The notes under the pieces: model-generated | The model's input: the letters and a program-made list of their open reading frames with translations, nothing else | Databases searched by the model: none | What the model was told of the DNA's origin: nothing | Origin: Oscillospiraceae bacterium | GTDB lineage: Bacteria; Bacillota; Clostridia; Oscillospirales; CAG-272 | Length of the DNA stretch: 64,000 nucleotides | Reading direction: 5' to 3' | Assembly (NCBI GenBank): GCA_015063695.1 | Contig: SVTQ01000001.1 | Location: forward strand, 70,311 to 134,310 | In this document: positions 11,833-14,945 of the stretch, piece after piece | Numbering within the stretch: position 1 is the first letter of the stretch | How the letters are laid out: each line of letters opens with the position of its first letter | Program-made: the position numbers and the translations under genes

Positions 11833-12726
11833 TCATTCGATATTCTGGATCTGCTCGCGGATCTTTTCAAGCTCGCTCTTGATGTCGACCACAAGGTGAG
11901 CTATCTCGGCGTTACCTGCTTTGGAGCCGATGGTGTTTGTTTCGCGGTTCATTTCCTGAAGGAGGAAGTCAAGCTTTCTGCCTGCAGGCTCTGGCTTTTC
12001 TATAATACCGTTCATTGCTTCAAAATGACTGTCAAGACGGACAAGCTCTTCGTCTATCGCCGCTTTGTCCGCAAAGATAGCGGCTTCCGTGAGTATTCTC
12101 TGCTGAGCTATCTCAACGTCAAAGTCGTCAAGGAACTTTCTTATCTTTTCCTCAAGCTTTGTACTGTACCCTGCGATCTCCGCTTCGGAAAGGACTTTTA
12201 TCCTTCCTGCGTACTCTTTGATTATACCCACTTTTTTCATTATATCTGCTTCAAGGTTTGCGCCCTCGCGCTCTCTCGCATCAAGGAACATGTCAAGAGC
12301 CTCGGAGAGAACGTTCTTAACGTCCTGCCAGTCCTTCTCCATATCGTCCTCGGGCTTTACCACTGTGAATATATCGCGGTACTGAGCAACTCTCATTACG
12401 GATATATCGTCGCGCAGATCAAACTTATCTCTCAGCTCATGGAGAGCCGCGATATAGGACTCTGCCACAGCGGCATCAAGGGCGATGGAAAGACCTGTCT
12501 GCTCAACAACGTCTATTCCTATATATATCTCAATCTTACCTCTTGAAACTCCTCTTTGAGCGAGGTATTCCTTGATCCTGTCCTCAAGGAAGCTGTACAT
12601 TCTTGGAAGCTTTACGGTGCAGTCAAGGTATCTGCTGTTTACGGATTTTATTTCCGCGGTGATATCCTTATCTCCTGCCGCGCTTCTCTGTCTGGCTCTT
12701 CCGAAGCCTGTCATACTTTTCAGCAT
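11833..12726 (-). CDS. yicC: YicC/YloC family endoribonuclease
   Basis: MTGFGR N-terminus and C-terminal LLQEMNRETNTIGSK...EQIQNIE (DUF1732-like). Confidence 0.85.
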   Translation of the reverse strand: MLKSMTGFGRARQRSAAGDKDITAEIKSVNSRYLDCTVKLPRMYSFLEDRIKEYLAQRGVSRGKIEIYIGIDVVEQTGLSIALDAAVAESYIAALHELRDKFDLRDDISVMRVAQYRDIFTVVKPEDDMEKDWQDVKNVLSEALDMFLDAREREGANLEADIMKKVGIIKEYAGRIKVLSEAEIAGYSTKLEEKIRKFLDDFDVEIAQQRILTEAAIFADKAAIDEELVRLDSHFEAMNGIIEKPEPAGRKLDFLLQEMNRETNTIGSKAGNAEIAHLVVDIKSELEKIREQIQNIE

Positions 12727-12807
12727 ACTTTTCTCTCTTTCCTGTATTTGTTTTTATCTGTATGCAACGTCCCCGCACACCTGCGGCATTTTATCGCATA
12801 TATATTA

Positions 12808-12837
12808 ATTATACAATATATTATAAATAATTGTCAA
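12808..12837 (-). promoter_or_regulatory. Sigma-A-type promoter for the yicC-remA-gmk operon
   Basis: Minus strand: TTGACA (12837-12832), 18-nt spacer, TATAAT (12813-12808). It lies about 80 nt upstream of the yicC ATG. Confidence 0.5.
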
Positions 12838-12928
12838 CATTAAAAAGGTGGATTTTTCCCCACACAAGCCGTTTTTAAAGCTGTTTTTTGACTTCGGAAG
12901 GATTTTTTTATTTTTTTTGGTTAAACCC

Positions 12929-12957
12929 TTGACAAGCAAAATCTTTTGTGATACTAT
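12929..12957 (+). promoter_or_regulatory. tRNA-cluster promoter with upstream T-rich UP-like tract
   Basis: TTGACA (12929-34), 17-nt spacer ending TGA, TACTAT (12952-57). A T-run at 12904-12918 lies upstream, and tRNA-Gly starts at 12975. Confidence 0.5.
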
Positions 12958-12974
12958 AATTAAGCTGTAAACAC

Positions 12975-13048
12975 GCGGGTGTAGTTCAGTGGTAGAATTC
13001 CAGCCTTCCAAGCTGGTTATGTGGGTTCGATTCCCATCACCCGCTCCA
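12975..13048 (+). tRNA. tRNA-Gly (anticodon TCC), CCA encoded
   Basis: Hand-folded cloverleaf: acceptor gcgggtg/cacccgc, anticodon stem ccagc/gctgg with loop cttccaa, T-loop ttcgatt. Confidence 0.93.
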
Positions 13049-13056
13049 ACAAATAT

Positions 13057-13133
13057 GTACCTTTAGCTCAGCAGGATAGAGCAACTGCCTTCTAAGCAGT
13101 AGGTCGGGGGTTCGAATCCCTCAAGGTACGCCA
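13057..13133 (+). tRNA. tRNA-Arg (anticodon TCT), CCA encoded
   Basis: Acceptor gtacctt/aaggtac, anticodon stem actgc/gcagt with loop cttctaa, T-arm ggggg-ttcgaat-ccctc. Confidence 0.93.
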
Positions 13134-13136
13134 TAC

Positions 13137-13214
13137 GGTGGGTGTAGCTCAGTTGGTTAGAGCGCCAGGTTGTGGCCCTGGAGGCCGTGGGTTCGAATCC
13201 CATCATTCACCCCA
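13137..13214 (+). tRNA. tRNA-His (anticodon GTG) with encoded G-1, CCA encoded
   Basis: The extra 5' G pairs with discriminator C. Acceptor gtgggtg/cattcac, anticodon stem ccagg/cctgg with loop ttgtggc. Confidence 0.93.
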
Positions 13215-13215
13215 G

Positions 13216-13247
13216 AAAAAAAGCACTTCTTCGGAAGTGCTTTTTTT
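13216..13247 (+). terminator. Intrinsic terminator after the tRNA cluster
   Basis: aaaaaaagcacttc-ttcg-gaagtgcttttttt: a 9-bp stem, a UUCG loop and a 7-T run. Confidence 0.85.
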
Positions 13248-13248
13248 C

Positions 13249-13436
13249 AGCTAAATTCGGCTCCTAAAGGCGCCGAGCTAAATTCCAAGCGGAGCTAAAT
13301 TGACCTTCGGTCAGCTAAATGTGTGCCTCCGGCACACGCTGTTCAGCCGAATTTTATTTAGCTTCACAAAGTGAAATTTAGCTGTGAGCAACGCGAACAA
13401 TTTAGCTGTTTTGCCGCGAGGCAAAATTATTTAGCT
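13249..13436. repeat. 4+4 mirror array of the octamer AGCTAAAT / ATTTAGCT with mini-hairpin spacers
   Basis: Exact AGCTAAAT at 13249, 13276, 13293 and 13313. Exact reverse complement ATTTAGCT at 13356, 13376, 13400 and 13429. Most spacers are self-complementary. Confidence 0.9.
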
Positions 13437-13483
13437 ATATTCGTACTGAAAAGCATCCTCCAAGCTGCAAAAGCCGCAAACTG

Positions 13484-13506
13484 ACCAACCGAAAGGTTGG
13501 TTTTTT
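13484..13506 (+). terminator. Intrinsic terminator closing the octamer-array region
   Basis: accaacc-gaaa-ggttggt followed by tttttt. Confidence 0.75.
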
Positions 13507-13531
13507 CGCTTAAAAATGGGGATTTTCACCA

Positions 13532-13560
13532 TTGACATTAAAGAGGAAAAAATATACAAT
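13532..13560 (+). promoter_or_regulatory. Near-consensus sigma-A promoter of the SulP gene
   Basis: TTGACA (13532-37), 17-nt spacer, TACAAT (13555-60). Confidence 0.6.
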
Positions 13561-13646
13561 ACCTAAGGCAAAAAAGATTGTCGAAAAACTTCGAAAAACA
13601 AGGGATTAAAGAGCTTCCTCTTTAAATGTACAGAAAGGTGCTTGAC

Positions 13647-14945
13647 ATGAAAGATTTCTATCTTATGCCTAAATTTTTTCAGGTCATAAAAAGCTACACC
13701 AAAAAGCAGTTTATATCCGACCTTGCGGCAGGCGTAATAGTTGCGATAATCGCTCTTCCCCTCTCCATCGCTCTTGCTCTCGCTTCGGGTGTTGAGCCTG
13801 CCTGCGGTGTTTACACTGCCATTGCCGCCGGCTTTATCGTTTCCCTTTTCGGCGGCAGCCGTATTCAGATAGCAGGCCCCACAGCCGCATTTGCTACCAT
13901 CGTTGCAGGTGTCGTTGCCACTCAGGGCATGGACGGTCTCTTTATCGCCACCGTCATGGCAGGTATTCTTCTCATCCTCATGGGCGTTCTGAAGCTCGGC
14001 TCACTTATCCGCTTTATGCCTCATCCCATTACGGTGGGCTTTACGGGCGGTATTGCGGTGACCATCCTTTTCGGTCAGATAAAGGACTTCTTCGGAATTA
14101 CTTATGCAGAGGGTGTCCGTCCCATTGAGACTATTGAAAAGATAGAAGCGAATATTGAGCACTTCTCAACTTTCTCCGTTGAAGCTCTTATTATCGGACT
14201 TATTTCCCTTGCGATCCTCATTATCTATCCCAAGCTCGAAAAGCGCGTTCCCCCTTCACTTATTGCGGTAATCGTCGGCGCTCTTGCAGTGGGGCTCATT
14301 CCTGCCCTCGGCGAAAACGTTTACACCATCGGCGACCTTTACACTATCCCCACGGGACTTCCCAAGGTGGACTTCGCTTCCATGGACTTCAGCACCGAAA
14401 AGATAATTGCGGTCATCCCCAATGCAGTGACCATCGCGATCCTTGCGGCCATCGAATCCCTTCTCTCCTGCGTTGTTGCAGACAACATGATAAAAACTGA
14501 CGGTACTCCCGAAAAGCACAACTCCAACGTCGAGCTCGTTGCTCAGGGTCTCGGTAACATCGCCTCCGTATTCTTCGGCGGCATCCCCGCTACAGGCGCT
14601 ATCGCAAGAACCTCTGCAAATGCCAAAAACGGCGGCAGAACACCTGTTGCAGGAATGGTACACGCCCTCATTCTTCTTCTCGTTCTTCTCTTCCTCATGC
14701 CCTACGCGGCGCTTATTCCCATGCCCACCATCGCGGCGATCCTCTTTATGGTCGCATATAACATGAGCGAATGGAAGAGCTTTGTGGGGATCGCAAAAAC
14801 AAAGAAATTTACCGACATCATCCTTCTTTTCGTGACCTTCGCGCTCACCGTTATTTTCGACCTTGTGGTTGCCATTGCAGTAGGTGTCGGCATCAAAATC
14901 GTATTTGTAATAATCGAAAAGCTCACAAAGAAAAACGAAAAATAA
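13647..14945 (+). CDS. SulP-family anion transporter lacking a STAS domain
   Basis: SulP N-terminal pattern (DLAAGVIVAIIALPLSIALALASG, IQIAGPTAAFA) and ~12-14 TM segments. The protein ends right after the last TM. Start 13647 preferred (GAAAGG RBS); 13626 is the alternative. Confidence 0.8.
   Translation: MKDFYLMPKFFQVIKSYTKKQFISDLAAGVIVAIIALPLSIALALASGVEPACGVYTAIAAGFIVSLFGGSRIQIAGPTAAFATIVAGVVATQGMDGLFIATVMAGILLILMGVLKLGSLIRFMPHPITVGFTGGIAVTILFGQIKDFFGITYAEGVRPIETIEKIEANIEHFSTFSVEALIIGLISLAILIIYPKLEKRVPPSLIAVIVGALAVGLIPALGENVYTIGDLYTIPTGLPKVDFASMDFSTEKIIAVIPNAVTIAILAAIESLLSCVVADNMIKTDGTPEKHNSNVELVAQGLGNIASVFFGGIPATGAIARTSANAKNGGRTPVAGMVHALILLLVLLFLMPYAALIPMPTIAAILFMVAYNMSEWKSFVGIAKTKKFTDIILLFVTFALTVIFDLVVAIAVGVGIKIVFVIIEKLTKKNEK

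Follow-up and report, generated by a model that had tools for sequence, protein, structure and literature searches.

The window, as we call the whole 64-kb stretch of DNA that was analysed, contains a tRNA-Gly(tcc)/tRNA-Arg(tct)/tRNA-His(gtg) operon on the + strand at positions 12975–13214, predicted by ARAGORN and matched by the Rfam tRNA models. The encoded CCA of tRNA-His (13212–13214) abuts the element described here. The element begins with the intrinsic terminator Term1 (13215–13248, not assigned to a strand), G-A7-GCACTTC-TTCG-GAAGTGC-T7-C, whose 7-bp stem, TTCG loop, and T7 run were read directly from the sequence; the terminator scan missed it because the A7 and T7 runs extend its stem. 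The sequence-only reading, an earlier annotation of this DNA, had named this hairpin the tRNA terminator. A terminator is present, but it is symmetric and hence bidirectional in form. Hairpins of the Term1 type form the left end of the repeated unit in most orphan (gene-less) copies.

Eight exact copies of the octamer AGCTAAAT follow within 188 bp, four on each strand. The left half of the array (13249–13320, + strand) carries AGCTAAAT at 13249, 13276, 13293, and 13313, and the right half (13356–13436, − strand) carries ATTTAGCT at 13356, 13376, 13400, and 13429; the 4+4 mirrored arrangement reported previously was thus recovered at all eight positions by sequence count. The array begins 1 nt after the T-run, separated from it by the C at 13248, and not 2 nt after it as had been given. 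The spacers are hp1 (13257–13275), hp2 (13284–13292), and hp3 (13301–13312) in the left half and hp5 (13364–13375), hp6 (13384–13399), and hp7 (13408–13428) in the right half. Between the halves lies an asymmetric centre (13321–13355, + strand) composed of hp4, gtgtgcc-tcc-ggcacac (13321–13337), and then GCTgttcaGCCGAATTTT. The hp2 sequence, tccaagcgg, is a 3-bp mini-hairpin closed by a T:A pair, and hp6, gtgagcaacgcgaaca, has tandem G.A/A.G mismatches as an internal loop; both recur at equal positions in relatives. The five spacer hairpins listed earlier are all present, but the statement that most spacers are hairpins fell short, as the remaining two are also hairpins and all seven spacers of the window can fold in this way.

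To the right of the array, the flank of the orphan element, atattcgtactgaaaaGCATCC...AAAGCC, occupies 13437–13482 (+ strand). It is followed by a second intrinsic terminator, Term2 (13483–13506, + strand; 13483–13502 plus the T-run), which the terminator scan detected, and by the SulP promoter TTGACA-17-TACAAT (13532–13560, + strand), which forms the context outside the element. Both the terminator behind the array and the near-consensus SulP promoter had been proposed before and were found. Term2 and the SulP promoter are also found together in two array-less relatives (L200 and L204), so this terminator probably belongs to the locus itself. No independent promoter adjoining the array was found for either strand; a weak minus-strand match lies further to the right (13584–13556), and inspection of the conserved right flank by eye resolved no sigma-70 promoter.

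The octamer is confined to the array: the remainder of the 64-kb window, in which the check on local enrichment was run, contains no copy. The chance expectation is 2.74 copies per 64 kb, and none of 100 dinucleotide-preserving shuffles reached eight, which upholds the claim of a count far above chance. In an Rfam search of window positions 12500–14000 with E-values up to 10, tRNAs alone reached the gathering threshold and no such match lay on the array; at 18 loci of the family described below, no model overlapped the arrays. Searches of the literature for the octamer and related terms returned primers and unrelated matches only, and a description of the array or of its association with a gene was found neither in Rfam nor in the literature searched, in agreement with the earlier opinion that the layout belongs to no described RNA family. 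As to its identity, Chi-like sites were rejected on account of the absence of the octamer from the rest of the window, and a CRISPR array on account of the 8-nt repeat, the palindromic spacers of 9–21 nt, and the inverted halves, where CRISPR would have direct repeats of about 23–50 nt in a single orientation, separated by unique spacers of comparable length. Type III antitoxin repeats and an attC site were also considered and rejected.

A scan for three spaced octamers, with one genome per species, returned at least 120 loci. The matches listed came mostly from rumen and gut Ruminococcaceae, Oscillospiraceae, Acutalibacteraceae, and unclassified Clostridia MAGs (mostly Oscillospirales); many of them had + strand copies followed by − strand copies, and the octamer spacing among the listed members was commonly 17–29 bp. 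At least 58 members with a common layout, from rumen and gut Oscillospirales MAGs, were found and oriented through the asymmetric central motif, so that the search for homologous arrays in relatives was positive. The family consists, in order, of an A-run/hairpin/T-run terminator separated by one C from the first octamer; (AGCTAAAT-T-hairpin) units, usually four, followed by the centre; four (hairpin-ATTTAGCT) units, in which the seventh octamer is often ATTTCGCT; and the flank AAAAnnnnTGGCATCTAAAnnATTC...CCA(G), often with a second terminator behind it. The consensus of the centre is hp-GCTnnnnGCGAATTTA followed by ATTTAGCT, and the polarity of the element derives from it. With its 4+4 layout the window copy is canonical, and its right flank has diverged from that of the family. 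Direct-only arrays of up to 13 units also occur; in one MAG, such arrays occupy, on the sense strand, the intergenic gaps of a co-directional series of dprA, topA, an SDR gene, and trmFO. A blastn search of phages and plasmids with the element gave no match; in a pattern search of viral contigs, most matches were ordinary tandem repeats, and L174 was the one genuine member.

The boundaries of the element were examined by blastn among family members with 1 kb of flank on each side. Homology between copies begins with the A-run of the terminator, about 45 nt ahead of the first octamer, and ends 25–40 nt past the last one; beyond these sharp ends the flanks are unrelated between copies. The copies L069 and L097 were 88% identical over 254 nt, and the pairs L089/L097 and L071/L099 were 88% and 91% identical, respectively. 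In copies linked to a gene, homology spans the interval from the first octamer to the gene end. Among the matches listed, 12 arrays besides that of the window have a tRNA or tmRNA gene in the same orientation ending 32–58 nt upstream. The upstream RNAs differ (tRNA-Leu, -Val, -Met, -Asn, -Pro, and -Cys, and tmRNA twice, with tRNA-His in the window), one array closes a 23S-5S-tRNA operon, and about 19 of the 58 left flanks read ...CCA-GAAAAAA-hairpin.

The tRNA-His-to-SulP interval was compared with those of the two close relatives, and the array is absent from both. L200, whose SulP is 92% identical, has the same tRNA operon, Term2, and promoter; a different terminator and a mirrored pyrimidine/purine repeat occupy its site, together with genes for a PF05635 and a NUDIX protein. 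In L204, whose SulP is 93% identical, the Term1 hairpin is identical, and 95 nt of unrelated sequence separate it from an identical Term2. More distant SulP homologues were not syntenic. No target-site duplication was evident at the junctions in the comparison of the window with L204 and L200; owing to rearrangements immediately upstream of Term1 in the closest relatives, the insertion junction is placed only approximately, not to the base. We regard the description of these arrays as a mobile family as nearly certain. Within 1.5 kb of the arrays in 65 loci, no Y1/RAYT, transposase, or integrase gene was recurrent, and the sole recurrent neighbour was a small gene for a four-helix-bundle protein, PF05635. 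Of the identities offered in the sequence-only reading, integrase arm-type sites are not supported, no integrase gene being associated with the arrays at these loci. A non-autonomous element of about 190 bp beside a tRNA gene came close to the comparative data, but the transposase implied by that proposal is not linked to the arrays, and a target-site duplication was not seen.

At eight genome loci, a same-strand ORF of 119–122 amino acids (MAESIML...) begins 20–50 nt beyond the last octamer. The product belongs to PF05635 (Pfam E-value of about 1e-28) and TIGR02436, "four helix bundle protein", and the closest solved structures are 2RLD and 2GSC, in each of which five chains were deposited. 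PF05635 proteins are uncharacterised, known from ORFs within rRNA intervening sequences, and related to Avd of diversity-generating retroelements (PMC11270868, PMC10053308, PMC4990558). Such a protein is encoded in L076 and L082, which are members of the array family, and in the cassette without an array that L200 has at the site orthologous to the window locus.

In a survey that started from the protein, 80 metagenome loci were fetched with the L076 protein as the reference. AGCTAAAT/ATTTAGCT occurred within 320 nt upstream in 38 of the 39 loci whose protein was at least 65% identical to the reference, the exception being L208, for which only 26 nt of upstream DNA is present, and in 0 of the 41 loci with an identity of 63% or less. 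The array usually lies directly upstream of the gene and is sometimes split around it; in L235, L239, and L240, which belong to the AGCTAAAT clade, a + array, the gene, and a − array follow one another, with 15 downstream units in L239. In L076 and L231, the interval from the upstream terminator to the start of the gene contains no sigma-70-type promoter, and in L082 the single same-strand match of this type overlaps the start codon; the cassette is therefore probably expressed by read-through.

Distant homologues of the protein have arrays of other motifs, 7–8 nt in length, at an equal location. TAATGAAG, ATGAAAT, and ATTTCAAG alternate with hairpin spacers; AGTGAATA, AATGATGA, AGATAATA, and AGTGAACA are contiguous, with the purine-rich motif first and its complement following; and AATGCAGA and AATGCACA form direct fourfold repeats only. 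The clades with contiguous repeats have an equal potential for a long stem. These arrays often stand directly behind the CCA of a tRNA or tmRNA and a hairpin. A strictly mirrored array ending 7–93 nt before the ATG was observed in 38 of 64 loci, and an upstream tRNA or tmRNA in 21 of 64. In L245, which has a TAATGAAG-motif array, one spacer is identical to hp6 of the window, indicating that the scaffold is common and the motif different. Complete records of cultured organisms gave further examples. In Monoglobus pectinilyticus (NZ_OY725736, near 80.8 kb), the gene lies between inverted TAATTAGGAATGAG repeats and is inserted between hsdS and hsdR; in Treponema saccharophilum (pTS1, near 162.6 kb), tens of purine-rich 8-mers stand upstream, with the complement on both sides of the gene; and in Nostoc sp. 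ATCC 53789 (pNsp_b, near 84.1 kb), AAGTCGC repeats lie upstream of the gene and more than 25 GACTTGC heptamers downstream.

The linkage of gene and array with clade-specific motifs was observed directly: protein clusters coincide with the motif classes, with mean identities of 0.74 within and 0.49 between classes. This co-variation could in part reflect the shared descent of the gene and its upstream region, not recognition. A functional tie of the array to PF05635 is likely in our judgement.

The spacers and the octamers are conserved in different ways. Each spacer was anchored on its flanking octamers, and its four basal pairs were scored; the evidence for the right-half hairpins comes from this anchor-based count, the MAFFT alignment within them being too ragged for column pair counts. 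The basal pairs were Watson–Crick in 90.5% of cases, as against 44% after shuffling, and 64 distinct 4-nt stems occurred among 153 distinct units. In an alignment of 21 sequences, two-sided changes were found at three of the four pairs of hp1 and at all three pairs of hp2. The spacer hairpins thus covary. Conversely, the four nested helices proposed for the octamers, 32 pairs in all, showed zero compensatory changes in the same alignment, and one pair was broken in 7 of the 21 sequences, where ATTTCGCT at the seventh octamer faces AGCTAAAT uncompensated. The lack of covariation and this mismatch indicate that the octamer is conserved as a sequence and not merely as a pairing partner.

It had been suggested that the array folds into a rod of four nested 8-bp helices. 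The energy of the rod fold was −67.3 kcal/mol on the + strand and −67.7 kcal/mol on the − strand, compared with minimum free energies (MFE) of −70.8 and −67.9 kcal/mol, respectively, and the z-scores for fold strength were −5.05 and −4.13, respectively. The rod is therefore energetically near-optimal on both strands, but its helices have no support from covariation. Wobble pairs were scarce, with 2 G.T and 3 A.C against 930 Watson–Crick pairs, and the corresponding counts in direct arrays were 4 and 1 against 261; these numbers are too small for the assignment of a strand. Such a near-absence of wobble would be unusual if the element were selected only as one RNA strand. The loops are of the T..C type in the left half and of the G..A type in the right half, where the hairpin with tandem G.A mismatches is also located. 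Since the G..A loops and the tandem G.A are always on the strand that reads hairpin-ATTTAGCT, the favoured strand flips at the centre. Single-stranded DNA, or a role for both strands, would account for this flip no less well than one RNA would.

Taken on sequence comparison, the window array is probably, though with some reserve, the cis-repeat module of a PF05635 cassette in the form of an orphan, MITE-like copy. The orphan element is a dispersed intergenic unit of about 250–290 bp in rumen and gut Oscillospirales, and cassettes and orphan arrays alike settle preferentially just downstream of tRNA, tmRNA, and rRNA operons. The gene-less 4+4 arrays may relate to the gene-carrying cassette as a MITE does to its transposon. 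In this model, the octamer would be the recognition unit of an oligomeric four-helix-bundle protein that acts in trans on orphan copies. Protein recognition appears the most likely basis for the motif because it is invariant within a clade while the spacers drift, and is replaced at all positions elsewhere. Direct binding of the octamer by the protein is plausible from these patterns, although we stop just short of calling it probable. The active form may be a folded single strand, which is favoured by the maintenance of the spacers as hairpins, and most likely a read-through transcript of the upstream stable-RNA operon; for the window, this would be a tRNA-operon read-through transcript ending at 13506. 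The spacer hairpins would bring the octamers side by side, mimicking the contiguous arrays of other clades. Pairing with the mirrored half would then give a stem of roughly 32 bp with interruptions, which would resemble the RNase III stems known from rRNA intervening sequences.

Several observations run against this reading. The 64-kb window contains no PF05635 homologue detectable by tblastn. Term1, which lies between the tRNA genes and the array, would stop most transcription. The lack of a recombinase gene in the 65 loci and of a target-site duplication in the comparison with L204 also belongs here, as do the near-absence of wobble pairs and the flip of the favoured strand at the centre.

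Three other explanations were weighed. The element might be a self-sufficient structured sRNA of about 200–290 nt, read from one strand or the other with Term1 or Term2 as its limit, which acts, for example, as a sponge or scaffold; its four nested 8-bp helices would carry seven side hairpins, and the link to PF05635 would amount to a shared insertion site only. The strong fold on both strands, a rod within 3.5 kcal/mol of the MFE, the covarying spacer hairpins, and the bracketing terminators all agree with such an RNA. However, its octamer helices would have to persist without covariation and with a recurrent mismatch, its stems nearly lack G.U pairs, no promoter adjoins the array on either strand, and the rod is impossible in the direct-only arrays, which are common. 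In addition, the motif changes with the protein clade, which a protein-independent RNA would not predict, and we consider this explanation improbable. It is likewise unlikely that the array is a set of double-stranded DNA sites (operator, transposase, or integrase sites) for PF05635 or another factor, with the spacers providing spacing only. The 4+4 inverted layout upstream of the partner gene does resemble autoregulated operators and multi-site transposon ends, an octamer spacing of commonly 17–29 bp would suit such sites, and the repeats are contiguous in several clades. Reading of a duplex, however, needs no compensatory change, and such change keeps the spacers as hairpins here while their sequence and length vary; moreover, the spacing is not constant, and neither a linked transposase or integrase gene (65 loci) nor a target-site duplication (window versus L204) was found.

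The location of the arrays behind tRNA, tmRNA, and rRNA operons and between genes could also be accounted for by a passive or host-serving terminator-insulator cluster, which would block read-through of stable-RNA genes in both directions with no dedicated protein and would have spread by slippage and recombination. In such a cluster, GC-rich hairpins, each followed by AUUUAGCU in the 3′ half of whichever strand is read, would be bracketed by two strong terminators. The symmetric design, the perfect Watson–Crick stems, the G..A-stabilised loops in the 3′ half of each strand, and the bidirectional terminators at the flanks are in line with this idea. Termination, however, explains neither the strict conservation of 8 nt at eight positions nor the concerted replacement of the motif in other PF05635 clades; the stem of each unit is followed by only three U, and the direct arrays of L035 are oriented, with respect to the genes on either side, so that they would not terminate. 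We therefore hold a terminator-insulator role to be a poor prospect, and retain the orphan copy of a PF05635 cassette as the preferred reading.

The nearest known counterparts of the element are the PF05635-bearing rRNA intervening sequences on the one hand and REP/REPIN- or MITE-type repeats on the other, and the element links the two. Intervening sequences of 23S rRNA carry a PF05635 ("S23p") ORF, for example in Coxiella burnetii (PMC4990558), and ORF-less versions exist alongside ORF-carrying ones (PMC11270868). As in those sequences, the PF05635 family is involved here, versions with and without the ORF occur, and a small, selfish-looking cassette resides in a stable-RNA transcription unit; a long stem enclosing or adjoining the ORF is likewise predicted from the terminal inverted sequences (L235, L239, and L240). 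Unlike them, the arrays of the family lie behind tRNA, tmRNA, or rRNA operons or between genes, outside rRNA helices, and the window copy follows tRNA-His and has no ORF. Their arms are also different, being arrays of a repeated 7–8-nt motif broken by variable hairpins.

With REP, BIME, and REPIN sequences, the element shares an extragenic position, often just after genes or terminators, hairpin-forming units that come in inverted pairs, a short conserved stretch next to every hairpin, and a high copy number. A further likeness would be one protein that acts in trans and recognizes single-strand hairpins, as is proposed here. However, the hairpins vary, both from position to position and from copy to copy, and the 8-nt linker is constant, the reverse of the situation in REP, and in place of one conserved imperfect palindrome with its conserved 5′ tetranucleotide there are the 64 distinct stems in 153 units. 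Unlike in REPIN-RAYT systems, no IS200/IS605-type Y1/HUH transposase was found within 1.5 kb of the arrays in 65 loci, and the associated protein is a four-helix bundle without a known catalytic motif. MITEs and the pneumococcal BOX element are similar in being short non-coding derivatives of a gene-carrying unit with a variable number of internal modules, sharp ends, and presence/absence among relatives. Derivation from a longer gene-carrying element is indicated by the arrays upstream of and around PF05635 genes, although the linked gene is not a known transposase. Unlike in MITEs, no simple terminal inverted repeat, target-site duplication, or transposase was found; the ends consist of a terminator and a non-inverted flank, and the element brings its own terminator along.

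A precedent for an oligomeric protein that reads tandem short RNA repeats is TRAP, which recognizes 11 G/UAG triplets. The similarities to TRAP are several copies of a short motif with variable spacers, an array upstream of a gene, and a small ring-forming partner protein (five chains in 2RLD and 2GSC), whose binding is putative here. The motifs differ in being 7–8 nt long, and a complementary array is usually present.

We raise, as a tentative wider possibility suggested by these comparisons, that PF05635/TIGR02436 proteins might be sequence-specific readers of tandem 7–8-nt repeats with a motif particular to each clade. The gene and its inverted arrays would then amount to a selfish cassette of very small size, resident within or just after the stable-RNA genes of Firmicutes, Bacteroidota, Spirochaetes, and Cyanobacteria. 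Gene-less arrays such as that of the window, and possibly certain tandem heptamers of Cyanobacteria, would descend from it as non-autonomous forms. One explanation may thereby connect rRNA intervening sequences, tRNA-flanking cassettes, and the short tandem repeat arrays of other phyla. PF05635 is a large and widespread family with solved structures, and we know of no function for it outside diversity-generating retroelements; the clade-specific cognate array beside the gene provides a concrete candidate ligand. For the poorly studied rumen and gut Clostridia, the arrays represent a new class of dispersed intergenic repeat, and their presence at the ends of tRNA, tmRNA, and rRNA operons may affect read-through, RNA processing, and genome rearrangement.

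On the minus strand of the window, a weak promoter-like site (TCGACA-17-TATTGT, 13556–13584) was located to the right of the array and directed leftwards, towards the array. Because Term2, the terminator on the right side of the array, has no T-run on this strand, a transcript from this site would traverse the array and stop at Term1, the bidirectional-type terminator on the left side. At the orthologous site of the relative L200 (1695–2790), where SulP was 92% identical to that of the window, tRNA-His was present as in the window but was followed by a different terminator. This site contained a mirrored pyrimidine-rich/purine-rich repeat (CTCTTCACTCTTCTC...GAGAAGAGTGAAGAG) and a promoter (TTGATT-17-TATAAT), together with a NUDIX gene and a PF05635 gene that belongs to a different clade. 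In another locus, L034, the PF05635 gene was likewise followed by a NUDIX-like ORF.

PF05635 genes accompanied by repeats were also present in three named organisms. In Monoglobus pectinilyticus, an unannotated PF05635 ORF (NZ_OY725736, 80876–81217) was placed between hsdS and hsdR of a type I restriction system, with inverted TAATTAGGAATGAG repeats at both flanks. In Treponema saccharophilum, a gene annotated as "four helix bundle protein", near position 162.6 kb of pTS1, was preceded by tens of purine-rich 8-mers (GGTGAAAG, ATGAAAGC, and GGAAAGTG) and flanked on either side by pyrimidine-rich complements. The PF05635 gene of Nostoc sp. ATCC 53789 (plasmid pNsp_b, 84.1–84.8 kb) was preceded by AAGTCGC repeats and followed by over 25 GACTTGC heptamers in tandem. 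This arrangement is similar to the short tandemly repeated heptamers (STRR), a long-recognised feature of heterocystous cyanobacteria; no link between STRR and the PF05635-flanking heptamers was found in the literature searched.

Outside the Clostridia MAGs, a complete 4+4-type array was found behind a tRNA-like 3′ end in IMG/VR contig 3300029514_000151 (145–327), which is classified as viral and was the sole clear member of the array family among 78 viral matches. In Paludibacteraceae and Saprospiraceae MAGs (L043, L046, L048, and L108), the full-length 12-bp palindrome ATTTAGCTAAAT was repeated every ~28–32 nt. This pattern is unlike that of the Clostridia array family, and the two may be unrelated.

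Two other recurrent sequences were observed beside or within the cassettes and arrays. The unrelated loci L076 (2590–2830) and L014 (right flank of the array, about 520–720) share, downstream of the cassette, a conserved GC-rich stretch of ~200 nt (cctcccctgtgtaaggggaggtgggtt...ggaggggttgtaaa...caatccctcagtcag). This stretch matched no Rfam family at the gathering score and may represent a further structured element. In L115 (4926–5432), each of the two arrays contained, within one spacer, an insert of ~50 nt (ggggaccccgaaGcgagcttgCcgagCtttggggaatggg or a nearly identical sequence). The insert was also present next to the TAATGAAG array of L245, on its upstream side, and has the appearance of a small hairpin repeat in its own right.

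A single 186-kb contig of one MAG, JAGASR010000034.1 (L017, L029, and L035), was rich in AGCTAAAT-hairpin arrays, the longest with 10 units. These arrays lay between housekeeping genes in L035, the stretch whose ORFs were read, and two converging arrays shared one bidirectional terminator in L029. These observations suggest a lineage-specific expansion.
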